Shown one piece after another: positions 1 through 40,494 of a stretch of 40,494 bases of DNA (position 1 is its first letter; every line of letters starts with the position of its first letter). The DNA is taken from IMG/VR virus record IMGVR_UViG_3300045988_104813; one strand, written 5' to 3'. Made by a program: the position numbers and the translations under genes. Origin of the DNA: a virus. The notes under the pieces were generated by a model, which was not told the origin of the DNA, ran no database searches, and saw nothing but the letters and a program-made list of their open reading frames with translations.

Positions 1-55
1 AATGAACACAATAGGAATTGCACTGATTAGTTTCGGTATCGGACTAATCATAAGT
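1..55. repeat. Exact 55-bp terminal direct repeat, copy 1 (identical to 40440-40494); most likely an assembly overlap of a circular molecule
   Basis: Read directly: bases 1-55 = 40440-40494. Confidence 0.9.
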
Positions 56-115
56 TGGAAATTGGCAGAAAGGGACAGGAAGAATGCTAAAAAGAAAACC
101 AAAAACAGAGAATGA
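2..115 (+). CDS. Small 37-aa membrane peptide (MNTIGIALISFGIGLIISWKLAERDRKNAKKKTKNRE); one TM helix plus a basic tail; its RBS lies at the other end of the window
   Basis: ATG at 2 (same ATG as 40441); strong SD AGAGAGG at about 40428-40436 only if the sequence is circular; hydrophobic core; below the 60-aa track cut-off. Confidence 0.35.
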   Translation: MNTIGIALISFGIGLIISWKLAERDRKNAKKKTKNRE

Positions 116-225
116 GAAAACGGAAGAATATTTCCACAGAGAAGTATTTCCGATGATTAACGCATTCGCCAAGGAGTGCAGAGGACACGCAAAACAGAAA
201 ATAACGGTGAAAGGAATATTTTCAA

Positions 226-399
226 ATGAACAAATATGTAGTAATGACGGGCAGAGATGATGTAGTGGTTTTAAACGCCGATGACAACAAGTCGGTTAAG
301 GCATACATAGCAAAAGGATACGGCATAACAAACCGCATTAAAGCAAAGTATCCGCTTGAAATGAGTGTCACAAAGATTATCGGAGGAGAGAAACAATGA
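226..399 (+). CDS. Hypothetical small protein (about 57 aa); stop overlaps the ATG of the next gene (ATGA)
   Basis: AAAGGAA RBS upstream; frame supported indirectly by the track; exact frame around 355-365 uncertain in my reading. Confidence 0.3.
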   Translation: MNKYVVMTGRDDVVVLNADDNKSVKAYIAKGYGITNRIKAKYPLEMSVTKIIGGEKQ

Positions 400-692
400 C
401 AGCAAAGCAAATAACAGAATTGCACGATTTGTGTTTGCAGATTAATTTATTTGCAGAAAGACATAATCAAGCACCTATTGCTATGTATCATATGATAGGT
501 GATGAAAATCCATTTACAACTATGATATGTATAGAAATATATCAAACTGAACCGTTCAATATAATCAAAACATTTACATTTTCAACGGATACTATTTCGA
601 CCGAAGACGTAAAAGGAAGATATTACAGATTAGTTAAGAAGTATTTGAAAGATTTAGTCAAAAAGAATGTAGAGGTAAAAGAGAATGAATGA
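396..692 (+). CDS. Hypothetical early protein
   Basis: Track ORF; GGAGGAG RBS; co-oriented early operon. Confidence 0.5.
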   Translation: MTAKQITELHDLCLQINLFAERHNQAPIAMYHMIGDENPFTTMICIEIYQTEPFNIIKTFTFSTDTISTEDVKGRYYRLVKKYLKDLVKKNVEVKENE

Positions 693-855
693 CGAAGTAG
701 AGAACTACAATAATGAAGAATTTATCGAGATATTAACCGCACTTGGCAGTAACACAAAAATATTGATTAATGGTAGTGCCGATTTTGAAATACGCCATTC
801 GTGGAATAATGGTGAGCCGTATATCAATATTGTTGTAAAAGAAAAAGACCGTTAG
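685..855 (+). CDS. Hypothetical small protein (56 aa, MNDEVENYNNEEF...)
   Basis: ATG overlaps the stop of the upstream ORF (ATGAATGA); below the track cut-off. Confidence 0.3.
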   Translation: MNDEVENYNNEEFIEILTALGSNTKILINGSADFEIRHSWNNGEPYINIVVKEKDR

Positions 856-886
856 AGCTGGCACTCGTAAACGGTCAAAGGTAATT

Positions 887-904
887 ACATAGATTAATCT
901 ATGT
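887..904. promoter_or_regulatory. Perfect 18-bp palindrome ACATAGATTAATCTATGT in an AT-rich intergenic region; candidate operator overlapping promoter-like hexamers
   Basis: Read directly; lies between two early genes. Confidence 0.4.
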
Positions 905-958
905 TTTACATATATTATACCACAAAAAAATAAAAAATCAAGAAAGGAATGATAAAAA

Positions 959-1315
959 GTGGGTAATGCAAATTTATTAGAGGTCGCTCGTGGCGCAATC
1001 GGTGAAAGATTGGACTATGAACTGGGAAAGGTTGTTGATAATATCAGCGACCTAAACACAAAAGCGGACGCAGTAAGAAAGATAACATTGACGTTATCAC
1101 TAAAGCCGGACAGCGAGCGACAGAACATAAAAATGTCGACACAGGTAAAATCAACATTGACACCAACGAACAACATTGAAAGCGCGTTGTATTTGACGGA
1201 ATCAGACGAGGGCAAAGCATTAGTCGAAATGTTGCCACAAGTACCGGGACAAATGGCATTAGATGGCTCGGAGCAAGACGAGCCAAAGATTATAGCGATT
1301 AAGAAAGCAATGTAA
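959..1315 (+). CDS. Hypothetical protein (GTG start)
   Basis: Track ORF; RBS AAAGGAATG upstream. Confidence 0.45.
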   Translation: MGNANLLEVARGAIGERLDYELGKVVDNISDLNTKADAVRKITLTLSLKPDSERQNIKMSTQVKSTLTPTNNIESALYLTESDEGKALVEMLPQVPGQMALDGSEQDEPKIIAIKKAM

Positions 1316-1335
1316 TTTAAAGGAGGATAAAGATA

Positions 1336-2037
1336 ATGATTAACAAAGAGTTTATTGAAAAAATCGAGGATATGACAGGACCAAAGGTGATTGAAACCGA
1401 CCATGGCGCATTTTCAGACAAGCAACTACACAGAATTGAGGACAGATTGATTGATACAACCAAGTTGTCAAGTCTAAGTGGTTTAGTCACTATGATGAAA
1501 CAAGAAATGGACAATTATGATAAGCCATTATTCGTCAGAGTGGTATCACCGGAGCAGGTTGATGTATTGGGTACGGTCAGATATGATATGCAACGTGAAA
1601 GACCATATGTTGCATATGCAAAATTCAATAGCTTTGACTTCGACAGTTATATGAGCATTGAAAATATGATTATCTGCCTAAAGTCACGTTTTGCACCGAC
1701 AGAGGACAGAGATTATCTTGTACAGTTACTCGGCAACATTACCGATCAACAATCAGTTCAGACGAAAGATGACGGTATAACACAATCGGCAACCGTCAAG
1801 AGCGGTATTCAGCTGGTTGGCGAACAGAGAATAAAACCGATTGTTTCGCTAAAGCCATACAGAACGTTTTTAGAGGTAGAACAACCAGAAAGCGACTTCC
1901 TAATTAGATTAAAAGACGGAAGTGCGGCACTGTTTGAGGCAGACGGTGGAGCTTGGGAACGTGAGGCAGTAAAAAATATTGCGGACAAGCTAAGAGAACT
2001 ACTTGCCGATGTTCAAAATGTACATATAATCGAATAA
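1336..2037 (+). CDS. Hypothetical protein (233 aa) upstream of the recombination module
   Basis: Track ORF; RBS AAGGAGGA. Confidence 0.6.
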   Translation: MINKEFIEKIEDMTGPKVIETDHGAFSDKQLHRIEDRLIDTTKLSSLSGLVTMMKQEMDNYDKPLFVRVVSPEQVDVLGTVRYDMQRERPYVAYAKFNSFDFDSYMSIENMIICLKSRFAPTEDRDYLVQLLGNITDQQSVQTKDDGITQSATVKSGIQLVGEQRIKPIVSLKPYRTFLEVEQPESDFLIRLKDGSAALFEADGGAWEREAVKNIADKLRELLADVQNVHIIE

Positions 2038-2044
2038 TAAAAAA

Positions 2045-2068
2045 GCGGGGGAATTTAATTTCCCCCGC
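2045..2068. terminator. GC-rich hairpin GCGGGGGAA-loop-TTCCCCCGC after the 1336 gene; weak T-tract
   Basis: Inverted repeat read directly. Confidence 0.3.
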
Positions 2069-2133
2069 AATACCGTTCAACGGCATATATTATAACACGC
2101 TTATATCTTAACACATAGAAAGGAAAATGTCAA

Positions 2134-2610
2134 ATGAACATATACGAAATAGACAATGCAATGTTTTCTTTAATTGACGAAGAAACAGGCGAAATAAAGG
2201 ATTACGAGGCATTTGAAGAACTACAAATGCAGAGAGAAGAAAAAATCGAAAATACAGCGTTATGGTATAAAAATCTTGTAGCCGAGAGCAAAGCTATAAG
2301 AGAAGAAGAAAAAGCACTTGCGGAACGTCGTAAGTCGTTGGAAAACAAGGCTGAAAATCTGAAGAATTTCATAAATCGAACATTGCAAGGTAATAAATTC
2401 GCTACTCCAAAAGTGGCGATAAGTTACAGAAAGTCAACGGCGGTGGAAGTTGATGACGAATTTATCGACTATGCAATGAAGAACAACAGTGACTTACTGA
2501 CATATAAGCAACCTGAGCCGAACAAAGCGGTCATTAAGGAAATGTTGCAGGGCGGTTTTGATATTCCGCACGCAGAGTTGACCGTGAGAAACAACATGAG
2601 TATAAAATAA
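2134..2610 (+). CDS. Siphovirus Gp157-like protein (recombination/replication-module accessory)
   Basis: N-terminal MNIYEIDN..F..L..E and ISYRKS motif recalled from Gp157-family proteins; position just upstream of a Sak4-like ATPase. Confidence 0.45.
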   Translation: MNIYEIDNAMFSLIDEETGEIKDYEAFEELQMQREEKIENTALWYKNLVAESKAIREEEKALAERRKSLENKAENLKNFINRTLQGNKFATPKVAISYRKSTAVEVDDEFIDYAMKNNSDLLTYKQPEPNKAVIKEMLQGGFDIPHAELTVRNNMSIK

Positions 2611-2613
2611 GGA

Positions 2614-3258
2614 GTGATACATATGGGAATACCGGTTTTAATTATGGGCGAAAGCGGTAGCGGAAAAAGTGCAAGTATGAGAAATATGGTACCTGAAAAG
2701 GTAGGTGTATTCAATGTTGCAGGGAAACCATTACCGTTTAAAAATGGCAAAAATTTTAAAACTGCTGACAATCCGTCATACAAAACAATAATGAACAGTT
2801 TGAAAAATGCAAAGCTAAAATGCTATGTGATAGATGACAGTCAATATTTAATGGCATTTGATTTTTTTAACAAATCTAAAGAAGTAGGTTATCAGAAGTT
2901 TACCGAAATAGGATATAACTTTGAGCAACTAATACGAACAGTGCAGACTGATACACCGCACGACTGCATTGTATATTTTCTGCACCATACAGAACAGATG
3001 CCTAACGGAAGTCTTAAGGCGAAAACAATCGGCAAAATGCTTGATGAAAAATTAACGGTTGAGGGATTATTCAGTATTGTTTTGATGTGTGTTGCAGATG
3101 AAAACAAACATGTATTTTTAACACAATCAAACGGAATAAGTACGGCAAAGTCGCCTATGGATATGTTTGATTTAGAGATTGATAATGATTTAAAAATGGT
3201 TGATGAAACAATAAGGGAATATTACGGACTGAATGAGGAGGATAAAAATAATGAATAA
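2614..3258 (+). CDS. Sak4-like RecA-core ATPase (AAA_24-type), putative single-strand annealing/recombination protein
   Basis: Walker A GESGSGKS near the N-terminus; about 214 aa; between Gp157-like and SSB-like genes. Confidence 0.6.
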   Translation: MIHMGIPVLIMGESGSGKSASMRNMVPEKVGVFNVAGKPLPFKNGKNFKTADNPSYKTIMNSLKNAKLKCYVIDDSQYLMAFDFFNKSKEVGYQKFTEIGYNFEQLIRTVQTDTPHDCIVYFLHHTEQMPNGSLKAKTIGKMLDEKLTVEGLFSIVLMCVADENKHVFLTQSNGISTAKSPMDMFDLEIDNDLKMVDETIREYYGLNEEDKNNE

Positions 3259-3814
3259 AATACAAGGATATGACGAAGCACAATCGTACACAGGTGAGAG
3301 CAGAACATTGCCGGCAGGTAAATATATCTGCGAAATCAAGGGTGCAAAAGAGGTTGAAACCAAAAACGGTAAGAAACAGTTGGTATTGCAACTGGATATT
3401 GCAGAGGGCGAATATAAAGACCATTACAGTAATCTATATGCGGCGAATGCTGAAAGAAACGGAACGAACGCAAAATGGAACAACGGAGGACTTTTCAGAC
3501 AAGGATACGAGGGTAAACAATTACCATTTTTTAAAGGTATGATAAGTTGTATTGAAAAAAGCAATGAGGGCTATGAATGGAATTGGGACGAAAAAACGCT
3601 TAAGGGTAAGAAAATAGGTGTATTGTTTGGACGTGAACAATACCTGATGAACGGTCAAAAAAAATGGGCGACTAAGGCAAGAGCGGTAAGAAGTATCAAA
3701 GGATTGGAAATGTCCGAAATTCCACAGGATAAACTACTTGATGGAAGTACATCGGGATTTGATACAAGCGGATTTGATGATGAGGACGAATCGGAAGAAG
3801 ATTTGCCGTTTTAA
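3251..3814 (+). CDS. Putative ssDNA-binding protein with SSB-like acidic C-terminal tail (…DEDESEEDLPF)
   Basis: Start moved to ATG 3251 (GAGGAGG RBS, 8-nt overlap with upstream stop); acidic tail ending in LPF resembles the SSB C-terminal interaction tip. Confidence 0.5.
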   Translation: MNKIQGYDEAQSYTGESRTLPAGKYICEIKGAKEVETKNGKKQLVLQLDIAEGEYKDHYSNLYAANAERNGTNAKWNNGGLFRQGYEGKQLPFFKGMISCIEKSNEGYEWNWDEKTLKGKKIGVLFGREQYLMNGQKKWATKARAVRSIKGLEMSEIPQDKLLDGSTSGFDTSGFDDEDESEEDLPF

Positions 3815-3827
3815 TATAGGTTAAGGA

Positions 3828-5693
3828 ATGGGTGCTATGGAGAATGAAAACAGAATAACGATACCCGATTTCAGTAAGGACGATTTTTTAATATCATCAA
3901 AACCGTTTCAATGGATAATAGACCAAGCTGACGGCAACGAGTTCATCAAAGGTCAGCTTGTGGCGCAAATGGCGGACAAAGCGAAAGAACTTGATGTATC
4001 AAACTTTCGGACGCAATTCAAAAACTACGTCAGAGCGCAAAAGGGTCAAAGCATTGTTTACGGCAACGTAATGGAGTTCAGTGGCACTGCAATAATGTGG
4101 GATACAGGCGAATGGATAGCAACTGATGACGGAGTGTATAGGTTTAAAGGACAGTTCAGCGAAAAAGTGACGGCGTGTCCACACCCGATATTTATGATAA
4201 CAAGATATTCAAATGTAGATACTGATGTTGAAAGTGTGCAACTTGTTTACGGCAGACCGGGACGAAATTACAAAACTAAAATCGTCCCACGTTCTGACCT
4301 TGCAAGTGCGAATAAAATCGTAAAATTAGCTGAATACGGTGTCGGTGTAACATCGGAAAACGCAAAGGCACTTGTACAGTTTTTAAGTGATTTTGAAAGT
4401 ATAAATTACGACAAAATAATCGAAAAGAAATCGTGCGATCATATGGGTTGGGTAGGCAGAGGATTTAAAGAATTTGCACCGTATATATCAGATTTGGAGT
4501 TTGAGGGACAGGACAGTTTCAGACAGTTATTTAATTCGGTAAGAGAGGTCGGCAGTTATGAAAAATGGCTTAAAACAATCAGAGATTACCGCAAAAACGG
4601 TAATATAGTTGTTCGCATGGTTATGGCGGCGAGTTTTGCGAGTGTACTGTTAAAACCGCTTGGAGCATTGCCGTTCTTCGTTCACCTATGGGGCGATACA
4701 GAAACGGGTAAATCGGTTGCGCTACTTGCGGCAGTGTCTGTATGGGCTGAGCCGGTTATCGGTAAATATGCCTATACATTCAATTCTACTGATGTAGGTA
4801 ATGAATTATATGCGGCGTGTTTAAATTCACTGCCGTTATGTATGGACGAATTGCAGATACTGAATAAACGTTCGGATTTTGATGATATAATATATCGTCT
4901 GTGCGAGGGTACAGGACGTTTACGCGGTAAAAAAGATGGTGGTATACAAAATATTAAGACGTGGCGAAATTGTATTATAACCACAGGCGAACGCCCGATA
5001 ACGTCAATGTCTTCCGGTGGCGGTGCGGTCAATCGTGTTATTGAAATAGAATGTAACGGCGGTAAGTTCTTCAAAAATCCGAGAGAATTTTGCAGAACGA
5101 TACAGTCAAGCTATGGTCACGCAGGCAAAGTATTTGTTGAGAATTTGACCGAAAATCTTGCAGAGGCAAGAGAATTACACGAAAAATACATAAAGCTGTT
5201 AGAGGACAATACGGACGCCACAGACAAACAAATTGCGTCAGCGGCGGCATTATTAACCGCTGATGAACTGTCTGAACGTTGGATATTTAATGACGGTATA
5301 AGAATAGGCATAGATGATATTAAGCCATATTTACAGACAAAGGATATGCTGAACGTCAACAGACGTGCCTATGACTATTTGCGTGAAGAAGTTATTTCTA
5401 ACTATAACAATTTTAAAAACAATGATAACGAGTGTTGGGGAATTGCTAAAGAAGGTTATATATATATTTTGCGAAACAAATTCAATGCAATATTGCAAAG
5501 CGGAAATTTCAATCCACAATCGACGCTTTCGTGGATGGCGAGAAACGGTAAGCTTGCAAAAACAGACGGTCGCAATCTTTCTGTTAAAGTGCAGATAAAC
5601 GGTACAAGAATACGTTGTATTTGCTTGCACGAAGATGATGGAGAGTTTACAGAAATGGATATTGATGATGAAGATTTGCCATTTGATATTTAA
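3828..5693 (+). CDS. Large replication protein: P-loop NTPase/helicase-like (Walker A GDTETGKS; DUF927/VirE/D5-like class) with an acidic C-terminal tail (…DIDDEDLPFDI)
   Basis: Track ORF, 621 aa; Walker A read directly; followed immediately by an iteron/AT-rich region. Confidence 0.55.
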   Translation: MGAMENENRITIPDFSKDDFLISSKPFQWIIDQADGNEFIKGQLVAQMADKAKELDVSNFRTQFKNYVRAQKGQSIVYGNVMEFSGTAIMWDTGEWIATDDGVYRFKGQFSEKVTACPHPIFMITRYSNVDTDVESVQLVYGRPGRNYKTKIVPRSDLASANKIVKLAEYGVGVTSENAKALVQFLSDFESINYDKIIEKKSCDHMGWVGRGFKEFAPYISDLEFEGQDSFRQLFNSVREVGSYEKWLKTIRDYRKNGNIVVRMVMAASFASVLLKPLGALPFFVHLWGDTETGKSVALLAAVSVWAEPVIGKYAYTFNSTDVGNELYAACLNSLPLCMDELQILNKRSDFDDIIYRLCEGTGRLRGKKDGGIQNIKTWRNCIITTGERPITSMSSGGGAVNRVIEIECNGGKFFKNPREFCRTIQSSYGHAGKVFVENLTENLAEARELHEKYIKLLEDNTDATDKQIASAAALLTADELSERWIFNDGIRIGIDDIKPYLQTKDMLNVNRRAYDYLREEVISNYNNFKNNDNECWGIAKEGYIYILRNKFNAILQSGNFNPQSTLSWMARNGKLAKTDGRNLSVKVQINGTRIRCICLHEDDGEFTEMDIDDEDLPFDI

Positions 5694-5922
5694 AATAACC
5701 GCCCTAACTGCCCTACAAAACCGACGTAAAACAATATGTGTATATTATAGAATATTTTTTTGAATTATTTATAATTAATAATTTTTATAAAAATAAAAAA
5801 GTATAAAAATGTGTAGGGCGGTAGGGCATTGGATAAAAAAATGTGTAATAATGCGGTCTAAAATATGCCCGACATTAAATTTTTGAAATTAGGGCAATAG
5901 GGCATATATAAGGAGTTAAACA
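5694..5922. promoter_or_regulatory. Candidate replication origin: three paired GCCCTA/TAGGGC iterons flanking a roughly 75-bp AT-rich stretch
   Basis: Iteron pairs at about 5701-5715 (+), 5814-5827 (-), 5890-5903 (-); AT-rich 5733-5810; directly downstream of the helicase-like gene. Confidence 0.5.
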
Positions 5923-7173
5923 ATGAAATTATTTGATTATCAAGAAAAAGCACTTGCATTAACGAGTGATAAAGACAATTCGGCATTTTACTATGATATG
6001 GGTTTAGGTAAGACATTTATAGGCAGTGAACGAATGCGATTATACGGTGAACGTGTGAATGTAGTCGTGTGTCAGAAGTCTAAAATCAAGGATTGGTACG
6101 AACATTTCAAAGAACATTATACAGATTATGCGGTATTTGATTTGACGAACAAAAAAGATATGCAGGCATTTATGACATATCCGATATACAAATGTATCGG
6201 TATTATAAATTACGAACTGGCATACAGACGTGAAGAATTAAAACAATTAACGAATTTTACAATGATGTTAGATGAAAGTTCGATGATTAAGAATGAAACT
6301 GCAAAACGTACGAAGTTTATACTTTCACTGAAACCGTCACATACAATATTGTTATCCGGTACACCGACAGACGGCAAGTATGAGTTCCTGTATTCGCAAT
6401 TACGCTTGTTAGGTTGGAAGATTACCAAAACGGCATATTATAACCGATACATAAAAACGGAATTGCGAAGTTACGGCGGTCCAATGTTCAGAGTAGTTAC
6501 AGGATACAAGAATGTAAGCGAATTAAAGGCAAAACTAAAGGAATACGGAGTGGTATTTGCTAAGGCAGAAGAAGTTATTAAGTTACCTGAAAAGAAGTTT
6601 ATCAAGGAATATTCGACTGTTTCATCAGACTATAAAAAGTTTATGAAAGACCGAGTAATCAAGATAGACGATAAGGAATTGACAGGCGACAGTACATTGT
6701 CAAAAAGACTGTATGCAAGAATGTTATGCAGTGCATATAGCAAAGACAAAATATCGCGATTAATTGATTTAGTTAATTCTACATCTGACAGGGTTATTAT
6801 ATTCTACAATTTCAATACCGAACTTGAAGCATTAAGAAAAGTGCTGTTTGATAGACCAATAAGCATAGTAAACGGACAAGTTAAGGACCTAAAGGAATAC
6901 GAAAATAACGATAATTCAGTTACATTGATACAATATCAAGCCGGAGCTATGGGATTAAATTTGCAAAAGGCGAACAGAATTATATATTTTTCTCTGCCGG
7001 AACGTTCGGAACTGTTTGAGCAATCAAAAGCGAGGATATGCCGTATCGGTCAAGAAAAACAATGCTATTATCACATAATGATGTGTCATAAGAGCGTGGA
7101 AGAAAAGATATATGAGTGTCTGTTAATGCGAAAAGATTATACAGACGAATTATTCAGAAAGGAATTTGGCTGA
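5923..7173 (+). CDS. SNF2/DEAD-like superfamily II helicase
   Basis: Motif I YDMGLGKT, motif III LLSGTP; classic phage partner of VRR-NUC. Confidence 0.8.
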   Translation: MKLFDYQEKALALTSDKDNSAFYYDMGLGKTFIGSERMRLYGERVNVVVCQKSKIKDWYEHFKEHYTDYAVFDLTNKKDMQAFMTYPIYKCIGIINYELAYRREELKQLTNFTMMLDESSMIKNETAKRTKFILSLKPSHTILLSGTPTDGKYEFLYSQLRLLGWKITKTAYYNRYIKTELRSYGGPMFRVVTGYKNVSELKAKLKEYGVVFAKAEEVIKLPEKKFIKEYSTVSSDYKKFMKDRVIKIDDKELTGDSTLSKRLYARMLCSAYSKDKISRLIDLVNSTSDRVIIFYNFNTELEALRKVLFDRPISIVNGQVKDLKEYENNDNSVTLIQYQAGAMGLNLQKANRIIYFSLPERSELFEQSKARICRIGQEKQCYYHIMMCHKSVEEKIYECLLMRKDYTDELFRKEFG

Positions 7174-7469
7174 TGGCAGAGGAAAAGAATTTTGAAAACC
7201 GAGTTAAGCAATGGCTTAGAAGTAAAGGCTGTTATGTGGTTAAATATTATGGTTGCGGAGGTACAAGAGCGGGCGTTCCTGATTTAATTGTATGTGCAAA
7301 TGGTAGATTTATCGGTGTTGAAATTAAAGCTGAACACGGTAAGCTTGCACCGCTACAACGTAGTCATTTAGATAAAATATTAACTTCCGGCGGTGCGGTA
7401 GCAGTGATTAGACCGTCAGAATTTGACGGGTTTAAGAAATTCATTGAGGAAGTGTTGAATGATGATTGA
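7173..7469 (+). CDS. VRR-NUC domain nuclease (PD-(D/E)xK)
   Basis: GVPDLIV…GVEIK motif; start moved to ATG 7173 overlapping the helicase stop (TGATG); AAAGGAA RBS. Confidence 0.75.
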   Translation: MAEEKNFENRVKQWLRSKGCYVVKYYGCGGTRAGVPDLIVCANGRFIGVEIKAEHGKLAPLQRSHLDKILTSGGAVAVIRPSEFDGFKKFIEEVLNDD

Positions 7470-31737: not shown

Positions 31738-31760
31738 GCACGCTTACGGCGTGTTTTTTT
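31738..31760 (+). terminator. Near-identical second terminator AGCACG-cttacgg-CGTGTTTTTTT (copy 2, about 72 bp downstream)
   Basis: Read directly. Confidence 0.7.
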
Positions 31761-31805
31761 AATACCAAAATCCCAATCAATTATGATTTAGAAAGGACGG
31801 ATAAA

Positions 31806-34598
31806 ATGAAATTAAATTTTAATTTTAGCGGAAAAACGCTGTTAAAGGATTGGTGGCCGATAGTGAAAGAAAATTTCAAGACCATTGAAACAGACCACAA
31901 CACACTGTCCGACAAATTGGACACAGAAATCACGCAACGCACCAACGCTGATGTAGGGTTGGCAGACAAAATCACCGCCGAAACCAAAGCGAGGGAAAGT
32001 GCGGATAGTTCGTTAAGCAGTCGCATAAACAACGAAGTGACAATACGACAGGCGGCGGATAATGAACTGCAACGAAATATCAGCGGCGAAGCAACCGACA
32101 GGGAAAATGCGGACAATACGTTACAAGGGAATATTGACGCAGAGGCGAAAAACAGGCGGGTCGGTGACAGTGAATTGCGAGAACAAATTTTAACCGAACA
32201 GACAAACAGAACAAACGCCGACGATATACTGAACGGCGGAAAAGCCGATAAAACCGATTTATATGGCAAGGAAACAGATGTTGTCCATAAAATAACGCAC
32301 AGTTTGAAAAAGTCTGATTTTATTATAAACATAAATCAAGGAAACGGAAACGGCACAATAACGATAAACAGTTTGGCGGTGCAGACTAAAATCTTTTTGG
32401 ACGGGAATGCAGCGATACAAACAGAGCCGATTTCAGCTTCTTTTTCTGCGGAAAAGGGCGAAGAAGGCGAAAAGTGGGTTAATTTGCTCTATGACCAATA
32501 TACAGGTAAACTCGGACTGGAAGTTACAGAGCAACCAGAGGCGGGAAATGTTGCAAAGATAGCAGTAACATATATGAAAGCCGAAGTTGCCGAAATGTAT
32601 GCGGGTCAACTGAAATTTGACGGTATCAAAGATTTGAGAGCATTAAAAACAGACAATAAAAATTCGTTTTTGGAGGCGGTCAATGAAATTGCAACAAAAC
32701 TGACAACTGAAATTTCGGACAGAGAGGACGCAGAACATTCACTGACTGAAAAAATCAGTACTGAAATTTCGGACCGACAGGCGGCGGACAACGAGTTGAA
32801 AGCGAAAATATCAGAGATAAATACTGAACTGACAACGGATAACCTGTTTTATGATTTATCTAAATACGTCAACAGTGACAACAAATTAGTCACTGACGAC
32901 AGCGGTGTACAGTATTTGTCATATTCGGGTTCGTTTGAAAACGGAACGTATTTGTATCACAATTTTGTTGTTGATAATTTCCGCCGTAAACCGAAAACGG
33001 AAACCGCATTAGAATTGACATTCAATGTGGCGTCACGTCATATAGCTGTGGACGATTGTGACAGTGGCGGTTTGAATAAAGGTGAAACAGACGTATTGAT
33101 TACATACACTGATACAACAACAGAAACATTCGGACAGTCATATTACACAGCAACCGATACCGGTGATAAAACAATCACGATAAACGGCACATCAGAAACG
33201 TATAAAACAACAAAATTTAAAATTGAAATCCCTGTAAAAAAAGAAATTAAATCAATTTCATTCCGAATTGTATCGGATAACTATTATACAAACGGTGACC
33301 CGACGGGAAATGCGTGTAAACAGAAAACATTAATACAGTCGGCTGTTTGTTATGATGATGAATGTGTGGCGGTATTGCGTGATGATATTAACACGAATAC
33401 ATCAAAAATTACTGCCAATACAACAAAAATCACCGAAATTGATAAAACAGTTACAGACATTTCAAAAAATCAAATATTTGTCGTGTGTGACGGCGACCAC
33501 GACGAATTAAAATTACAGGCGGCGATAGATAGCGCGCCGTATAAAAGTATTATATATCCTGTAGGTGAATTGTGCATTATTACAAATGCAAATATGAAGT
33601 CGGGTTACGGAATGACGGGAACTAATAACGGTGTGGCAATTCCGTTGAAAGGCGGAATGACGTTAGACGGTTCAATGTGCAATACAATTATGTTCAAAAA
33701 CACAAATCCTGTCGCAAAACAATATGTTTTTCATCTGCCGGAAGGCGCTAAAATACAAAATGTAAAATTTACAGAGGACACGGACACAGTAACGGCGGAC
33801 ACAGTAAATCCGACAGTATTATCAGCGCAAAGTAGTTCACAGATAATATCCTGTACATTCTACGATATATTCAGTACACATCAATTCGGTGTATCAACGT
33901 TTGAAATGAGCAACGTTCTGTTTTTGAACAACGTCATAGATACGTTCGCAGGTGCACCGGCAAATAATTTGACATACGAAATAAAAATCGCAGGCAATTC
34001 GTTTGTTATGGGTAACAAATTTTTGAATTTCACGCAAAAAGAACAATCGTTAGGATATATGCTACAGGCGTCAACCGTTATATTTGTAAACAATTATATG
34101 TCCGGTTTTACAAATTGCAGTATTGATATAGGCAAAAAAATAGTAGGCAATATATTTAAAACGTTTACTGATTGCAGTATCGATATAAATGGCGAAATTT
34201 CGGACAATGAATTTGCAGCAATTACACAGAACACAAAAACACCGTTTATATACACCAAGGGGATTACATTAATCAGCGGAAACAGAATGCCTGTTATAAA
34301 AATTAATTCCGAATATATCGATTTTATCGAATGCGGAAATTATGCCGTTATATGCGGAAATTATATGCACATTTCCGCAGGCCCTACGTCGGGACAGTGT
34401 AATCTAATATCAGCCAGCAGTCAGACGCTGATAGCAGATAATATATTTAGGACAACGGCGTCTGTAACGGCAAATGCAGATTTTTCAATTATATACAGCG
34501 ACGGTAAAACAGTAGTCAAAAATAACGTGACAAACGCAACATCAATCGGAACGTTCAGCGATACGTGCGTTGTCGATGGAAATGTGACAGGGTGGTGA
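31806..34598 (+). CDS. Receptor-binding protein / tail fibre: N-terminal coiled-coil heptad-like repeats, C-terminal right-handed beta-helix (pectate-lyase-like, possible depolymerase)
   Basis: Start moved to ATG 31806 (GAAAGGA RBS); repeated D/E-x-x-R-x-x-AD-x-L segments; C-terminal NNV/GN-rich repeats typical of parallel beta-helix. Confidence 0.65.
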   Translation: MKLNFNFSGKTLLKDWWPIVKENFKTIETDHNTLSDKLDTEITQRTNADVGLADKITAETKARESADSSLSSRINNEVTIRQAADNELQRNISGEATDRENADNTLQGNIDAEAKNRRVGDSELREQILTEQTNRTNADDILNGGKADKTDLYGKETDVVHKITHSLKKSDFIININQGNGNGTITINSLAVQTKIFLDGNAAIQTEPISASFSAEKGEEGEKWVNLLYDQYTGKLGLEVTEQPEAGNVAKIAVTYMKAEVAEMYAGQLKFDGIKDLRALKTDNKNSFLEAVNEIATKLTTEISDREDAEHSLTEKISTEISDRQAADNELKAKISEINTELTTDNLFYDLSKYVNSDNKLVTDDSGVQYLSYSGSFENGTYLYHNFVVDNFRRKPKTETALELTFNVASRHIAVDDCDSGGLNKGETDVLITYTDTTTETFGQSYYTATDTGDKTITINGTSETYKTTKFKIEIPVKKEIKSISFRIVSDNYYTNGDPTGNACKQKTLIQSAVCYDDECVAVLRDDINTNTSKITANTTKITEIDKTVTDISKNQIFVVCDGDHDELKLQAAIDSAPYKSIIYPVGELCIITNANMKSGYGMTGTNNGVAIPLKGGMTLDGSMCNTIMFKNTNPVAKQYVFHLPEGAKIQNVKFTEDTDTVTADTVNPTVLSAQSSSQIISCTFYDIFSTHQFGVSTFEMSNVLFLNNVIDTFAGAPANNLTYEIKIAGNSFVMGNKFLNFTQKEQSLGYMLQASTVIFVNNYMSGFTNCSIDIGKKIVGNIFKTFTDCSIDINGEISDNEFAAITQNTKTPFIYTKGITLISGNRMPVIKINSEYIDFIECGNYAVICGNYMHISAGPTSGQCNLISASSQTLIADNIFRTTASVTANADFSIIYSDGKTVVKNNVTNATSIGTFSDTCVVDGNVTGW

Positions 34599-34602
34599 TA
34601 TT

Positions 34603-34980
34603 ATGTACAAATTTTATATGAAAAACGGGCAGGCACAATTCTATGAACGCGGTGTTGAAATTGACGGCACGGTGTACGGAATACATACCGACAGGGATAT
34701 ATTGCGTATAAAACGCAGTGTTGTAAATAACAAATTCGCCGAAACTGACGACAATTTCGATATGGACACAGAAATCGCAAAAATTCAGCATACGAGCATC
34801 ACATTTAAACAGCCGACATCAGAACAACTGTCGCAGATACAGGCGAAAGCATTTGGCAGTATGTCGGATATGAAACAATATGTTCAGTCCATTATGAACG
34901 GTGAGCTGACACAGGATGAAATCAACGCAATGCTGATGTTACAGATTGCGGAACTGAAAGCAGGTGTTGGTGGTGAATAA
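34603..34980 (+). CDS. Hypothetical protein after the RBP (125 aa)
   Basis: Track ORF. Confidence 0.5.
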   Translation: MYKFYMKNGQAQFYERGVEIDGTVYGIHTDRDILRIKRSVVNNKFAETDDNFDMDTEIAKIQHTSITFKQPTSEQLSQIQAKAFGSMSDMKQYVQSIMNGELTQDEINAMLMLQIAELKAGVGGE

Positions 34981-35095
34981 AGCGTTAATCAAGAAGTACT
35001 ATCAAATGGGTATTTACAAAGAGAAACACCTTGACATATTCGTCAAAGCGGGAGATATAACGAAAGCAGAAAAACGAGAGATTATGGAGGGTTAA
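34973..35095 (+). CDS. XkdX-like small protein (40 aa; …KKYYQMGIYKEKHLDIFVKAGDITKAEKREIMEG), GTG start
   Basis: Matches the XkdX pattern (YY..G.Y…FV.AG.IT..E); AGGTG RBS; below the track cut-off. Confidence 0.45.
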   Translation: MNKALIKKYYQMGIYKEKHLDIFVKAGDITKAEKREIMEG

Positions 35096-35096
35096 C

Positions 35097-35375
35097 ATGG
35101 AAAATGAAAAAGAAGTGTGGGAGCGTCTGACTGCCGTAGAGCAGTCCACCAAGTCGGCACACCACAGAATTGACGGTATCGAAAAACTGACCGAAAGCGT
35201 TCATATAATTGCTACTGAAACTAAAGCAATGAGAGAGGACGTAAACGATATTACATCACGGGTAGACGAAATAGAAAAACGTCCTACAAAGCGATACGAA
35301 ACAGTAGTTACCGCCATTATTACGGCATTAGTCGGCGGTTTGATAGGTTATTTTATTAAAATGTTGGGTTTTTAG
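35097..35375 (+). CDS. xhlA: XhlA-like haemolysin/lysis-associated membrane protein
   Basis: About 90 aa, N-terminal coiled coil, C-terminal TM (VVTAIITALVGGLIGYFI); position before the holin. Confidence 0.55.
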   Translation: MENEKEVWERLTAVEQSTKSAHHRIDGIEKLTESVHIIATETKAMREDVNDITSRVDEIEKRPTKRYETVVTAIITALVGGLIGYFIKMLGF

Positions 35376-35396
35376 TATTTTAGGAGGTATGTAAAA

Positions 35397-35600
35397 ATGA
35401 AAGAATGGTTTAAATGTGCAGGAATAAGAGCAATCAAGACGATTGCACAGACAGCGATTGCGACAATCGGTACGGCCGCCGTACTGGGTGACGTCAACTG
35501 GGTAATGGTTGCATCAGCGGCGGCATTGGCAGGCGTACTGTCGTTGCTGACATCAGTTGCGACGGGATTGCCGGAAGTGAATAATGAAAAGGGGGAATAA
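35397..35600 (+). CDS. Holin (LL-H / phage_holin_6-like)
   Basis: WFKCAGIRAIKTIAQTAIATIG…LSLLTSVATGLPEV matches the LL-H holin family pattern. Confidence 0.75.
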   Translation: MKEWFKCAGIRAIKTIAQTAIATIGTAAVLGDVNWVMVASAAALAGVLSLLTSVATGLPEVNNEKGE

Positions 35601-35603
35601 AAT

Positions 35604-35858
35604 ATGACGTTACAAGATACCGTTGCACTGATGAATAGTGCAGATTATAAGGAACGTTTCAAGGCGGAATATTATCAATTAGCCAATAGGTTCAAAGGAT
35701 TAAAGAAAATGTTGGAGGAATGGGACAGGGGAAAATTAAAATTTTTCCCAACGTGTCCACGCAGTACATACGACATACAACTAAACGCAATGGCTGACTA
35801 TTTGGCGATTTTAGAGGCGCGAGCAGTAATGGAAGATATTGAATTGAAAGAGGTGTAA
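35604..35858 (+). CDS. Hypothetical protein between holin and endolysin (84 aa)
   Basis: Track ORF. Confidence 0.45.
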   Translation: MTLQDTVALMNSADYKERFKAEYYQLANRFKGLKKMLEEWDRGKLKFFPTCPRSTYDIQLNAMADYLAILEARAVMEDIELKEV

Positions 35859-35864
35859 TGAAAT

Positions 35865-36677
35865 ATGCGAATAGGAATAAACTGCGGACACACCGTCAGT
35901 GGTGAAATCGGTTGTGGAGCAGTAGGCGGAATTGATGAAAGTGTGGAAGCACGTAACGTCGGTTATGCGCTTGAGGCACTGTTGCGTAGCGCCGGTCATA
36001 CCGTGTATGACTGCACCAACGACCACGCCGACAGTGTCGGCGCAAATTTAAGCAATATCGTAAATATGGCAAATGCACAGCCGTTGGATTTGTTCGTGTC
36101 AATCCATTTTAACAGTGGCGGAGGCAGAGGCACGGAGGTATGGACGTATCAAGAGGAAACGTTCCCCGAAGCCGAAAATACCTGCAAAGCTATTAGTGCA
36201 TTAGGCTATAACAACAGGGGAATAAAAAACGGTACGAAGTTGTACGTCGTTCGCCATAGCAACGCCAAAGCTATGTTGGTTGAGTGTTGTTTCGTTGACA
36301 CTGACGACGCAGACAAATACAAAAAAATAGGCGCAACAGAGTTCGCAAAAGCAATATTTAAGGGTATAACAGGGCAGGAAACAGAAAGTGAGGATTTAAC
36401 AATGTCACAATATACAGAATTAAAAGAATTAATCGAAAAACAGGCGGCGGAAATTGCCGATTTAAAAAACATCAACAAACAGTTGGTAAACGTAGTCCAA
36501 ACTACAATGGTATACGATTTCAATGATGACAATATGCCACCGTGGGCGCGTCCTGCGGTGCAGGCGGCTATGGATTGCGGAGCGGTACAGGGTGATGAAA
36601 ATGGCCGTTTAGGTTTGTCCTACAAGGATTTACGTGCCATTGTACGTGAATATCGTTGCGGATTGTATAATAAATAG
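35865..36677 (+). CDS. Endolysin: N-acetylmuramoyl-L-alanine amidase (Amidase_3) with C-terminal coiled coil and small binding domain
   Basis: MRIGINCGHT…LFVSIHFNSGGGRGTEVW…LVECCFVD amidase_3 signature. Confidence 0.9.
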   Translation: MRIGINCGHTVSGEIGCGAVGGIDESVEARNVGYALEALLRSAGHTVYDCTNDHADSVGANLSNIVNMANAQPLDLFVSIHFNSGGGRGTEVWTYQEETFPEAENTCKAISALGYNNRGIKNGTKLYVVRHSNAKAMLVECCFVDTDDADKYKKIGATEFAKAIFKGITGQETESEDLTMSQYTELKELIEKQAAEIADLKNINKQLVNVVQTTMVYDFNDDNMPPWARPAVQAAMDCGAVQGDENGRLGLSYKDLRAIVREYRCGLYNK

Positions 36678-36690
36678 GATAAATAAAAAA

Positions 36691-36720
36691 ATAGGTGGCT
36701 ACGTGCCACCTATTTTTTAT
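36691..36720. terminator. Bidirectional terminator ATAGGTGGC-acgt-GCCACCTAT flanked by A-tract and T-tract between endolysin (+) and integrase (-)
   Basis: Read directly. Confidence 0.75.
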
Positions 36721-37748
36721 TTGTTTTCGTTTATGCGGTTTATTGCGTCAATACCTGCATAGTACAAATTAGTTGCATATGTATGACGGAATATATGTGG
36801 TGTAACGTCTTTTGCGATTAATCGTATAGCCGTGTCCGAACGTGAAAACTCGTCACCGCCTGCGGCAACATTCATCTTATCTAATATATTATACCAAAAA
36901 CGACGAAACGATGATTTTGTCATAGGTTCACCGCTTTTCATTGTAAATAAATATATATTTTTTGCGTGTGCAATATATTCTTGCAATTCTGACAATAGTT
37001 TTGCCGGAAGAGGAATGGAGCGGTTGCCTGCGTTTGTTTTAGGCGAATTTTTTAGGTGACTTTCACCGTCCTTTATCACCAAATTTTTGTTTATGATTAA
37101 TCTGCGATTTTTAAAATCAATATCTTTGACGGTCAAAGCCAGTGCTTCACCGCGTCTTACACCAGTGTAATATAGTAGATCTACAAATACACGTTCACGC
37201 TGTGTCAGTTTTGCTTTTTCAAAAATTGCTTTCTCTTCGTTCGATAATGACCGCTTTTCTTTCTTTTGTGATTGCGGTAATGAAACTTTCAACGAAACGT
37301 CCTTGTAGATGTATTCGTTTATTATCGCTTGTTGGATAATCTGTTTTATCGTCAGTCTAACGATTTCAGCAGTTCGGTAATGACCGACACTGATAATGTC
37401 ATTTAACATTTCTTGAATATGATGTGACTTCAACGCACTTAAACGAATACCGCCTATTTCGGGTATAATGTGCGAATTTAGGGCGTTTAAATACATTGCA
37501 TAGGTGTTATACTCTTTCGCTGATTTGTACAGCTTTAGCCACTTTATTCCCCATTGCTCTACGGTCATACCCTCATCATTGATAATGATGCCTTTATTTT
37601 GCAGGCTCTTGAACTCGGCGACCTTTTTGTCCAGTTCCATAATTGTACGACCGTACAGTGTTTTACGTTTCGGTTTGCCGTCGTCTGTATATCCAACAAT
37701 CGTACTTGTTGCATAACGTCCGTCGGGACGTTTTTTATATTTAGCCAT
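36717..37748 (-). CDS. int: Tyrosine recombinase / phage integrase
   Basis: C-terminal HIFRHTYATNLYYAG (R…H..R…Y catalytic pattern); start moved to MAKYKK (AGGAG RBS). Confidence 0.9.
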   Translation of the reverse strand: MAKYKKRPDGRYATSTIVGYTDDGKPKRKTLYGRTIMELDKKVAEFKSLQNKGIIINDEGMTVEQWGIKWLKLYKSAKEYNTYAMYLNALNSHIIPEIGGIRLSALKSHHIQEMLNDIISVGHYRTAEIVRLTIKQIIQQAIINEYIYKDVSLKVSLPQSQKKEKRSLSNEEKAIFEKAKLTQRERVFVDLLYYTGVRRGEALALTVKDIDFKNRRLIINKNLVIKDGESHLKNSPKTNAGNRSIPLPAKLLSELQEYIAHAKNIYLFTMKSGEPMTKSSFRRFWYNILDKMNVAAGGDEFSRSDTAIRLIAKDVTPHIFRHTYATNLYYAGIDAINRINENK

Positions 37749-37847
37749 AAATAACACTCCTTTTTCGTTTTTTTGTATTGAAAATAGAGTGCATTTGTGT
37801 TACAATATCATTGGTATGGGATATTGTGTATAAATGCACTTTATTCT

Positions 37848-37973: not shown

Positions 37974-38696
37974 TTAGAATGTTTCTTCGCAAATACCCAA
38001 AACTTTACCGCAACATTCGTTTCTGATATATTCATTAATGATTATATCGGAATATTTTTCATTATGTGAAATTAATCTGTCAACACCTAATTCCTTAACA
38101 TATGCGTTACCGTCCACAACAAATATCCCGATTTCACCGATTTCAATACTTGGCTGTTCTTTGACGAATAACTTATCGCCGTTGTGATATGTCGGCTCCA
38201 TACTGTCACCCGATACACGAACAATGAAATCTGTTCCCTTTGGCGGTTGTTCTGTTAGGTCAACCTTTTCAGGATATTCTTCGTCCAACGGGTTGCCTGT
38301 TCCTGCCGATACGGGCATATCGTAATAAGGTACTTGGTATTTTTTTATTGGTATGATGTTATCGTAATTTGGTTCGTTTGGAATATTACGTTCTAACTCT
38401 TTTCTTATAACCACTTGAACAACTTCTTTACTGTGGTCATCAAGTTTTCTGTAATCGGATACTAATTTTTTTTCTACCGCTGAATAATTTTTTAAGTTAG
38501 AATTGTCATCAAAATCTTCGAGAGTACATTCTAAGGCTCTTGCGATAGCTTTTATAGTATCTATTTGAGGGTCTTTAGTCACTCCCGATAATATTTTTTT
38601 TAAGGTACTTATCGGAACACCAGATTTTTGCGATAACGTTTCTATTTTCATTTTTTTTGATTTGCGAATTTCTGATATTTTTGTTCCTATACTCAT
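37974..38696 (-). CDS. CI-like repressor: N-terminal XRE HTH plus C-terminal S24 LexA-like autopeptidase
   Basis: HTH KIETLSQKSGVPISTLKKIL; SGDSMEP…K peptidase motif; divergent from the cro-like gene; start moved to ATG 38696. Confidence 0.85.
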   Translation of the reverse strand: MSIGTKISEIRKSKKMKIETLSQKSGVPISTLKKILSGVTKDPQIDTIKAIARALECTLEDFDDNSNLKNYSAVEKKLVSDYRKLDDHSKEVVQVVIRKELERNIPNEPNYDNIIPIKKYQVPYYDMPVSAGTGNPLDEEYPEKVDLTEQPPKGTDFIVRVSGDSMEPTYHNGDKLFVKEQPSIEIGEIGIFVVDGNAYVKELGVDRLISHNEKYSDIIINEYIRNECCGKVLGICEETF

Positions 38697-38722: not shown

Positions 38723-38751
38723 ATTGTAACACATAAATAACTCATAGTCAA
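38723..38751 (-). promoter_or_regulatory. Putative repressor promoter on minus strand (TTGACT, 17 nt, TACAAT)
   Basis: Read on the reverse complement. Confidence 0.4.
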
Positions 38752-38758
38752 GAAAAAA

Positions 38759-38849
38759 AGTTCCAAAAGGTATACTTTTTTTCTTGCAAAAGGGTTGACA
38801 AGTTCCGAATAGTATGCTAAGATATATATAGAAGTTCCAAATAAGGTAC
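38759..38849. promoter_or_regulatory. Three 17-bp operator repeats AGTTCC-N5/7-GTA(T)AC (O1 38759-38775, O2 38801-38817, O3 38833-38849)
   Basis: Read directly; O2 is exactly the spacer between -35 and -10 of the cro promoter. Confidence 0.5.
38795..38823 (+). promoter_or_regulatory. Cro promoter TTGACA, 17 nt, TAAGAT
   Basis: Read directly. Confidence 0.55.
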
Positions 38850-39088: not shown

Positions 39089-39108
39089 ATGAAAGGGGGT
39101 ACATAATA

Positions 39109-39306
39109 ATGAACGAAGAAAAAGTTACTATAAACATAGGTACAGACACAACGGAGCTTAATCAAAAACTTGATGAAAGCATAAAAAAAGCAACGGAGTT
39201 AATGGAATTGCTACAACAATTAGGAATAACTCCGTTACTAAAAATTAATACACCATATAATAATGCAAATAGGGTAAGAGGAGCGAAAATTACTCGCCGC
39301 AATTAG
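39109..39306 (+). CDS. Hypothetical small protein (65 aa)
   Basis: Track ORF; preceded by the 19-bp repeat AATCAGCGTAAATGAAAGG. Confidence 0.45.
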   Translation: MNEEKVTINIGTDTTELNQKLDESIKKATELMELLQQLGITPLLKINTPYNNANRVRGAKITRRN

Positions 39307-39469
39307 AAAGTTTTTCACTAATATCTTGTAACCATTTTGTATTACCGTTTATGCGAGAAATGGCGCATTCAGCTAATTCATCATCGTACCAAGCACATCG
39401 TGAAGAACAGGGTGCTTTATCGGTAGCAGTTGACATTAGTGGACAGATTTCGTAATTTGTAAAACTCAT
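39290..39469 (-). CDS. Small Cys-rich protein (59 aa, 4-5 Cys), minus strand, convergent with the 39109 gene
   Basis: Start moved to MSFTNYEIC (GAGGTGA RBS 5 nt upstream); RBS lies inside a hairpin. Confidence 0.45.
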   Translation of the reverse strand: MSFTNYEICPLMSTATDKAPCSSRCAWYDDELAECAISRINGNTKWLQDISEKLSNCGE

Positions 39470-39500
39470 TATAATCACCTCGCTTTCTACGGTGATTATA
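39470..39500. promoter_or_regulatory. Hairpin TATAATCACC-tcgctttctac-GGTGATTATA; on the minus-strand RNA one arm carries the SD of ORF 39290-39469, and each arm carries TATAAT
   Basis: 10-bp perfect arms read directly. Confidence 0.5.
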
Positions 39501-39550
39501 ACACAAATAACGGGGAAATACAATCAGCGTAAATGAAAGGAAGTGAGGGA

Positions 39551-39781
39551 ATGAACATAATAGAAGCAACACGCAAGGCATTAAAAGAGGGCGTAGGAAT
39601 AAAGAATAAGAATGATATTACGCAGAATTATTTATTACCTACAAATACAAGAGAATGTTATATTGTTGTTCCGATTGGGTTTGCTGTAGGTAATAACACC
39701 AAAGCCGTACCACGTTGGAATCCTAAAGCAGAAGATATACTTTCAAATGATTGGGAGTTATATCCGCATAAAACGGTATAA
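39551..39781 (+). CDS. Hypothetical small protein (76 aa from second ATG; track start 39533)
   Basis: Preceded by the second copy of the 19-bp repeat; RBS AAGGAAGTGAGGGA. Confidence 0.45.
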   Translation: MNIIEATRKALKEGVGIKNKNDITQNYLLPTNTRECYIVVPIGFAVGNNTKAVPRWNPKAEDILSNDWELYPHKTV

Positions 39782-39794
39782 CCCCCACAAAGTA

Positions 39795-39998
39795 TTACTG
39801 TTTTAAACAGAACTCGTATGCTACATCATCTGCGTCTTGGACTGAATAAATAAAACCGTCTTGAATTAGATTTCGGAGCATAACATCTAACTCATCTTTA
39901 GGAATTTTAAGGTCGTCCATTACATCATAAAAACATATAGAAATGTATTTGTCGTGAGTTTTGTAAAAATCAAGAATATAATTCTTCAATGCTTCCAT
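39795..39998 (-). CDS. Small acidic protein (67 aa), minus strand, possible winged-helix
   Basis: Track ORF; GGAGGTGA RBS inside a hairpin. Confidence 0.5.
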   Translation of the reverse strand: MEALKNYILDFYKTHDKYISICFYDVMDDLKIPKDELDVMLRNLIQDGFIYSVQDADDVAYEFCLKQ

Positions 39999-39999
39999 A

Positions 40000-40029
40000 T
40001 ATAATCACCTCCATTCTACGGTGATTATA
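40000..40029. promoter_or_regulatory. Second copy of the RBS-sequestering hairpin TATAATCACC-tccattctac-GGTGATTATA upstream (minus strand) of ORF 39795-39998
   Basis: 30 of about 33 nt identical to the copy at 39470-39500. Confidence 0.5.
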
Positions 40030-40079
40030 GCATAATATCAAGAATTTTACAATGAGAGATAGAAAGTAGGTGAAAAACA

Positions 40080-40283
40080 ATGGCAAAAGTAATGGTAGAA
40101 GTAAAGCAAGTAGATTTGAAAACATTTCGCCAAATGTTCGGAATACCGGAGCATACTGTACAACGTTGGGTACACACCAAGAATTTCCCGGCATACAAGT
40201 TGGGTCAGAAATGGTACGTTGACCTGAAAGCATTTGAAAAATGGCGTGAAACAGAACACGCCAACAGCTACAAATATGCGTAA
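40080..40283 (+). CDS. Excisionase-like / MerR-type HTH DNA-binding protein
   Basis: FRQMFGIPEHTVQRWVHTKNFPAYKLGQKWYVDLKAFEKW resembles the HTH_17/Xis family pattern. Confidence 0.5.
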   Translation: MAKVMVEVKQVDLKTFRQMFGIPEHTVQRWVHTKNFPAYKLGQKWYVDLKAFEKWRETEHANSYKYA

Positions 40284-40439
40284 AGCATAATAAAACACCT
40301 TGCAGGCAGACAAGGGCTGTCCGCAGTATTATACCGCAAAAAAGTCAATTTTTCTTTTCCCTAAAAAGTTTGAATTTTAATGAAATCTGTTTTGCGGACG
40401 GCTCCTGTGTGCCTGTGAGGAAGTAAAGAGAGGTAAACA

Positions 40440-40494
40440 AATGAACACAATAGGAATTGCACTGATTAGTTTCGGTATCGGACTAATCATAAGT
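40440..40494. repeat. Exact 55-bp terminal direct repeat, copy 2
   Basis: Identical to 1-55. Confidence 0.9.

Follow-up and report, generated by a model that had tools for sequence, protein, structure and literature searches.

What does a viral DNA that begins and ends with the same 55 bases represent, and why does its endolysin gene lie beside its integrase gene? The stretch concerned is the IMG/VR virus record IMGVR_UViG_3300045988_104813, a phage sequence that we call the window, meaning the whole stretch of 40,494 nt that was analysed. The answer developed below is that the window very probably represents a circular genome of 40,439 bp that is an integration-dead deletion derivative of a Hominilimicola prophage, as judged from comparison with its integrated relatives.

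The terminal repeat and circularity

Positions 1-55 of the window equal positions 40440-40494 exactly, as a sequence-only reading of the window had stated, and 55 is the sole length at which a prefix of the window equals its suffix. A repeat search found this pair, spaced by 40,439 bp, to be the only long exact repeat in the window (all other repeat families are imperfect and at most 39 nt long), and an exact match of 55 nt has a negligible probability of arising by chance (4^-55 per position pair).

A protein identical to the window integrase is recorded on 22 contigs, ten of which were fetched (L097-L106 in our numbering). They are 99.98-100% identical to the window, nine of them at 100% and L105 with a single mismatch. 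These contigs come from different runs and from three kinds of assembly: SPAdes-style scaffolds, MEGAHIT contigs with k = 127 from PRJEB24041, and Logan contigs with k = 31. The MEGAHIT project is a human gut cohort (Korpela 2018, PMC5880245). Eight of the ten (L097, L098, L099, L101, L102, L104, L105 and L106) cross the join between the end and the start of the window, and in these join-crossing contigs the two alignments to the window overlap by exactly 55 nt, i.e., the 55-mer is present once. Other scaffolds of 40,494 bp open elsewhere or in reversed orientation (HILD21-1 scaffold_1281, HILD21-1 scaffold_421 and COST17-1 scaffold_306), and the Logan contig ERR12109363_479 is also opened at a different position. 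In the COST17-1 record (L137), which comes from another study, window position 40494 is followed directly by positions 56-77, its opening being shifted by 22 nt. A Logan k = 31 contig measures 40,469 bp, or 40,439 + 30, and its excess of 30 nt is what would be expected for an overlap of k-1. Diverged IMG/VR relatives, 89-94% identical to the window over the join region, are likewise contiguous across it. An exact search for the end-join sequence in IMG/VR returned no match, a result that is superseded by these alignments to related and identical contigs.

The window is confirmed to be one linearisation of a whole genome of 40,439 bp that is circular or circularly permuted. This agrees with the earlier proposal of a whole circular genome of about 40,439 bp opened in the early region, given that the eight contigs and L137 all cross the join. 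Because the identical contigs hold a single 55-mer and other scaffolds open elsewhere, the repeat is the overlap that a de Bruijn assembler working at k = 55 leaves when it closes a circular path, and it has no biological role. The left copy (1-55) is single in the independent contigs that span the join, and removal of the right copy (40440-40494), beyond which L137 runs on into 56-77, gives the circle of 40,439 bp. In this sense the terminal repeat signals completeness in the routine way, and the final 55 bases are to be trimmed.

The opening of the window lies between an HTH_17 (helix-turn-helix, HTH) gene and a group of small early open reading frames (ORFs), inside a 37-aa ORF of small membrane type that extends across the artificial break (MNTIGIALISFGIGLIISWKLAERDRKNAKKKTKNRE; positions 2-115, plus strand, with the ATG at 2-4 and the stop at 113-115). 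It had been suggested that this ORF, which starts at base 2, gains a Shine-Dalgarno sequence once the ends are joined, and this is borne out: the ORF is present, and a Shine-Dalgarno-like AGAGAGG lies at 40427-40433, 7 nt before the copy of the ATG at 40441. All diverged relatives keep the 37-aa ORF together with a GAGGT motif; of the distinct codon variants, 11 are synonymous and 4 non-synonymous. Independent gene callers predicted the ORF in L115 and L120 only and left it uncalled in most contigs. A 58-aa ORF in another frame (84-260), which shares 32 nt with the 3' end of the 37-aa ORF, is called in the identical contigs.

Exact terminal repeats are also what a linear virion genome with fixed ends and a genuine short direct terminal repeat (DTR) shows in assemblies. 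However, we consider such an origin of the 55-bp repeat extremely unlikely. Its length equals a standard assembler k, and the k = 31 assembly fits an overlap of 30 nt instead; in other samples the same genome opens elsewhere, 22 nt or thousands of nt away, or is reversed; the repeat is located within a conserved ORF; and the packaging genes are of the SPP1/PBSX type, not of a type that packages short-DTR genomes.

Integrated parents, attachment site and host

Integrated parents of the window were found through look-ups with its 98-aa early protein, its CI repressor and its lysin. On the integrase side there are host contigs, the longest of 261 kb, that match the window at 99.9-100% identity; the match begins at about 8.3 kb, crosses the end/start join and ends at position 36731. 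Beyond this point the contigs carry a full integrase gene (int) of 375 codons, followed by part of a tRNA-Lys and by host genes. Contigs that extend on the lysin side are 100% identical to window positions 30865-36752 and then run into an intact HTH gene, followed by an 83-aa gene, the entire tRNA-Lys(CTT) and host genes, which are either tRNA-Arg, MurA, FtsQ and FtsZ, or DUF218, QueH, PAP2, MurT and GatD. One scaffold of 56,775 bp carries both prophage ends (L116 and L140). The attL and attR sites share a 48-nt core derived from the tRNA, TGACTCTTAATCAGGGTGTCCAGGGTTCGAACCCCTGATCGCGTACCA, which is present in the parents and relatives and has no match in the window at up to three mismatches. 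A short contig, L107, has the canonical attP order: full int, then the tRNA fragment, then the region of small ORFs.

The FtsZ encoded beside the prophage is 100% identical to the FtsZ of Hominilimicola (family Oscillospiraceae). From these comparisons, the window appears to derive from a widespread temperate phage of human-gut Hominilimicola that integrates at the 3' end of tRNA-Lys(CTT). The integrated prophage at this tRNA (for example, ENA ERZ28755694 contig_17773 and VERV19-1 SAMEA103971353 scaffold_283) has the gene order of the window and is 99.9-100% identical to it over all parts compared, namely 8.3 kb of early and replication genes, the lysogeny module up to 36731, and the segment 30865-36752. 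The prophage holds a 375-aa integrase with its catalytic Tyr, the 48-nt core, an intact 59-aa HTH gene and the 83-aa gene, whereas the window is circular, has no host flanks and lacks these 1,011 bp. More distant relatives, with an integrase (Int) 83% identical, adjoin a tRNA-Lys(TTT) that closes a host tRNA cluster. Because these distant relatives also adjoin a tRNA-Lys, targeting of tRNA-Lys is a trait of the family.

A sequence of temperate-phage type that is bounded by direct repeats could alternatively be an integrated prophage cut from a host contig, with the repeats as its attL and attR cores. This is vanishingly unlikely for the window. The real core is the 48-nt tRNA-Lys fragment adjoining int, which is unrelated to the 55-mer; the region of the 55-mer is internal and single-copy in the integrated parents; the window contains no host DNA; and int lies 2.7 kb from the window end with the lysin abutting it, which is not the integrated order. 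The view of the sequence-only reading that the repeat is an assembly overlap and not a pair of att sites can therefore stand.

The tRNA-Lys site also holds other elements. In L122, L123, L126 and L129 (about 12356-13766) there is an island on the int side with a different, 380-aa integrase and an HTH_17 gene, and in L138 (5623-8553) the lysogeny module of another prophage (a 341-aa Int, an M78 peptidase and an HTH repressor) lies beyond the full tRNA. With these tandem elements, the tRNA-Lys site is an integration hotspot. In L016 (1-10274; IMGVR_UViG_3300045988_079995) the full int 3' end and tRNA fragment are followed by about 220 bp and then by DNA 92-95% identical to the window from 22125 back to 12949, i.e., from the tail chaperone back to terS. 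Either a second related prophage, truncated and placed in tandem at this tRNA, or a chimeric assembly may account for the arrangement. The host genes on the int side in L124 (12883-20723) and L128 (10118-17958) encode giant SLH-domain proteins of 2,182 and >2,354 aa, and a stretch of 377 nt just before the SLH-protein genes is 66% similar to window positions 21793-22125. Cargo of different kinds lies past the HTH gene in more distant relatives on the lysin side: L029 (4514-5853) encodes a HipA-like kinase together with an HTH partner, and L032 (3076-5586) encodes a ParB-like protein, a Gp49/RelE-like protein and a protein of 390 aa, so that the att-adjacent region is mosaic.

A deletion between the endolysin and integrase genes

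In the window the endolysin gene (Amidase_3; 35865-36677, plus strand), which is the last gene of the late operon and was assigned by PHROG and Pfam, lies only 39 bp from an integrase-family ORF on the minus strand (36717-37757). The earlier reading took this adjacency for the gene order of a circular, attP-carrying phage. The adjacency is real, but the order is not that of attP: in the canonical circle the HTH gene, the 83-aa gene and attP lie between lysin and int, and the window lacks them. The abutment of lysin and int is a deletion junction and not the attP region.

Homology to the window stops at 36731 in the relatives that extend on the int side and at 36752 in those that extend on the lysin side. 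When the canonical circle is reconstructed by joining the exact parents at the att core, it measures 41,450 bp and contains two copies of the 7-bp sequence CGTCAAT, 1,011 bp apart, of which the window holds one (36746-36752). To the left of this microhomology the window is identical to the attR-side parent (L132), and to the right of it to the attL-side parent (L122). The copy in int falls at about codon 338, and the copy in the small HTH gene downstream of the lysin precedes the stop by 11 codons. A further partial match (GCGGTTT) adjoins the microhomology. Lost with the deleted segment are 37 codons at the 3' end of int, among them that of the catalytic Tyr, as well as the 83-aa gene, attP and all but the 3' tail of the HTH gene.

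What is left of int is a chimeric, truncated tyrosine integrase of 343 aa counted from its ATG (36717-37748, minus strand; the ORF reaches a GTG at 37757). The window protein ends ...YYAGID-AINRINENK*, where the last nine residues (AINRINENK) derive from the HTH gene, whereas the Int of relatives with 99% identity continues ...YYAGID-VKTAQRLLGHSSIQVTLEIYTHLD...* to the full form of 375 aa. The Pfam profile Phage_integrase (PF00589) is matched up to position 146 of 172 in the window Int, compared with 170 of 172 in the 375-aa form. Specifically, the window Int is without the LLGH...Y catalytic C-terminus: the last His/Trp and the nucleophilic Tyr are missing, and the R-K-H-R-(H/W)-Y set is incomplete. 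The HTH gene survives as a 3' tail of 11 codons and the stop (36717-36752, minus strand); in the integrated parents this 59-aa XRE-type gene is intact, and in relatives it lies on the minus strand directly after the lysin terminator. In the window a predicted bidirectional intrinsic-terminator hairpin (36686-36718) separates the lysin gene from the chimera of HTH tail and int.

None of the 22 contigs with the chimeric Int is longer than 40,494 bp, and in the ten places listed int has phage genes on both sides and no host genes; full-length Int, by contrast, is found on contigs of up to 261 kb. When the window integrase was searched against genome contigs, only distant matches were returned. 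One integrated copy, in HILD21-1 (L129, 10949-12037; SAMEA7519239 scaffold_1026), has an int of 362 codons, 13 fewer than the usual 375.

Assemblies often break or mis-join near att sites, and many IMG/VR contigs end near the tRNA fragment. The junction could on this account be an assembly chimera, the real genome being the canonical attP circle of 41,450 bp, a possibility that we rate as very unlikely. The junction is real DNA because the 7 bp in common are far below any assembler k and because it recurs in three types of assembly, SPAdes-style, MEGAHIT k = 127 and Logan k = 31, made from different runs. The sizes, moreover, agree on a unit of 40,439 bp (40,494 is the unit plus 55, and 40,469 the unit plus 30).

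Two other interpretations were tried and rejected. The first supposed that 36731-36752 is itself the att core and that the flanks of the relatives are host DNA. However, these flanks complete the int C-terminus and the HTH gene, three contigs (L107, L024 and L092) link them via the tRNA fragment, and the true attL and attR are found on host contigs. The second supposed that excision normally truncates int, with integration completing the gene. This fails because the contig with attP order, L107, has a full int, and because a circle without active Int could never have integrated.

Origin and lifestyle of the derivative

We propose that recombination between the two CGTCAAT microhomologies removed the 1,011 bp from a temperate Hominilimicola phage. 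To judge from its sequence, the derivative would be unable to integrate and would exist only as replicating or packaged DNA, probably via headful packaging of the SPP1 type. It would then propagate lytically or as a transient unintegrated episome, despite an intact CI repressor. The window is complete as a replicon, with all of its lytic, replication and repressor functions, and incomplete in its lysogeny module. No partition (ParA/ParB) or plasmid replication or maintenance genes are found among its called genes, and a stable plasmid-prophage state is unsupported because no partition genes were seen.

Several points weigh against the reading of the window as an integration-dead derivative. 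Both the circularity and the deletion are judged from assembled contigs. Neither IMG/VR nor the JGI metagenomes gave a match to the chimeric junction in an exact search. A deletion in the excised circle and an aberrant excision from the chromosome would give the same product, so that either route may have been taken, and the loss of integration is a prediction from the state of int and attP. Finally, the studies from which the chimeric junction comes may share donors, and a wide independent spread is not supported.

The contigs with the chimeric junction are confined to COST17-1, HILD21-1, PRJEB24041 and the runs ERR12109363 and ERR12109889. The identical CI is indexed in 462 blocks of the collection and the identical lysin in 372. 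The confinement to a few studies, together with the near-identity of the chimeric copies, accords better with one origin and subsequent propagation than with repeated formation. A more specific version is that the circle is a self-sustaining, non-integrating lineage that arose once by the 1,011-bp deletion and has persisted, or been transmitted, among related donors over several sampling campaigns. We offer this tentatively, with somewhat less than even confidence.

Alternatively, the circle may be a recurrent dead-end by-product, made by aberrant excision of a resident prophage at CGTCAAT and amplified after induction in a lysogenic Hominilimicola population. It would then resemble the illegitimate excisions that make specialised transducing phages, except that both breakpoints would fall within the prophage. 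The integrated parents are indeed 99.9-100% identical to the circle, recombination between direct repeats in the chromosome would yield exactly this product, and an integrated form (L129) occurs in another sample of the same study, HILD21-1. We nevertheless consider recurrent by-product formation unlikely. Though CI and lysin are spread over 462 and 372 blocks, only a few cohorts, which may be related, show the chimeric junction; the chimeric contigs are 100% identical save for the one mismatch in L105, while integrated copies differ by a few single-nucleotide polymorphisms; and no reciprocal chromosomal scar is on record as DNA or as protein, a result that is uninformative since the collections searched also lack the chimeric junction and may not include the relevant host.

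If the circle does represent a self-sustaining lineage, it would be a natural transition from a temperate to a non-integrating phage in the gut, with both parent and derivative known to the base. The defined pair of parent and derivative lends itself, as a clean natural system, to the question of how frequently non-integrating descendants arise from gut prophages and whether these persist. It also illustrates that a circular sequence with an integrase present is not the same as a functional temperate phage. Automated lifestyle calls would label the window temperate, which is misleading because it lacks both attP and the integrase nucleophile.

Gene content of the window

Scans with PHROG and Pfam profiles identified a complete siphovirus gene set. 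On the plus strand, a replication and recombination module (959-7469) encodes a replication-terminator-like protein, a Gam-like protein (Sipho_Gp157), a Sak4-like annealase, a protein resembling single-stranded DNA-binding protein, a DUF927 primase/helicase, an SNF2 helicase and a VRR-NUC protein; an N6 methyltransferase is also among the window genes. The packaging module follows at 13075-17627 (plus strand), with terS (Terminase_2), terL (Terminase_3/PBSX), an SPP1-type portal and a Mu-F-like minor head protein. The head, neck and tail module (18085-34598, plus strand) encodes a scaffold, the major capsid protein, an adaptor, neck proteins, a tail terminator, the major tail protein, the tape measure protein (22630-27489), Dit, Tal and a distal tail protein of 963 aa. 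An r1t-type holin, assigned by family match, is encoded at 35397-35600 (plus strand), upstream of the lysin.

The lysogeny module retains an intact CI-like repressor (HTH_3 and Peptidase_S24; 37974-38696, minus strand), for which an identical protein is found in the integrated parents. Divergent promoter-like sites lie at 38723-38823, so that a repressor/switch module is present. The HTH_17 gene just upstream of the opening (40080-40283, plus strand) is by family match an early gene resembling an excisionase or regulator. ARAGORN found no tRNA in the window.

Several further features were observed. The tail module is interrupted by an island of low GC content (0.33-0.34) at 30032-31655, which has the look of a moron or defence cassette and is also present in the integrated parents. 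It contains an Abi_2 abortive-infection gene (30798-31655, plus strand; PHROG 2158, PF07751) and, in the opposite orientation, an ORF of 193 aa without a family match (30032-30613, minus strand). An early protein of 82 aa (39533-39781) matches the Pfam family Tad2-like (Thoeris anti-defence 2) with 29.4 bits against a cutoff of 25 and is possibly an anti-defence protein, and an ORF of 84 aa between holin and lysin (35604-35858) matches PF21825 (crAss001_48-related; 'Sequestin' in precomputed matches). The plus strand of the window has a strong excess of purines, with 14,449 A to 10,274 T and 9,256 G to 6,515 C. The cumulative GC skew rises monotonically, levelling off only within the two minus-strand blocks (30.0-30.8 kb and 36.7-38.7 kb), with no inflection in the window that would mark a replication origin.

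Comparison with known systems

Among known phages, the window is closest in kind to the pac-type siphoviruses that are SPP1-like or have a PBSX terminase. It has in common with them a Terminase_2 small subunit, a Terminase_3 large subunit, an SPP1_portal protein, a Mu-F-like protein and the Dit/Tal tail tip. It differs in having no nucleotide similarity to any isolate in INPHARED: megablast searches of both halves of the window gave no match there, i.e., no close isolate exists at the DNA level in that collection, and the best match of TerL is that of Dorea phage DO134P1, at 68% amino acid identity. Among the temperate siphoviruses of Clostridia, the phage is a new member of the SPP1-like/PBSX-terminase group. 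Headful packaging is in this case predicted from the genes. The packaging genes probably indicate SPP1-like headful packaging, which by itself would already give circular assemblies.

As an assembly, the window resembles the metagenomic 'DTR' circular contigs that carry a completeness flag of the CheckV or IMG/VR style. The signature is the same, an exact repeat of the length of the assembler k, and in this respect there is no difference. Compared with the usual contigs of that kind, however, the circularity of the window is additionally validated by permuted contigs from other assemblies.

As a deletion derivative, the window has its classical counterparts in the att/int deletion mutants of temperate phages, the b2-type deletions of lambda and the spontaneous lysogeny-module deletions of the Streptococcus thermophilus phage Sfi21. 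In those mutants, as in the window, attP and/or int are lost by deletion between short repeats; they keep lytic growth and the repressor and form no stable integrated lysogens. The difference is one of provenance: the lambda b2-type and Sfi21 mutants are laboratory isolates, whereas the derivative described here comes from human gut metagenomes and is known from its sequence.

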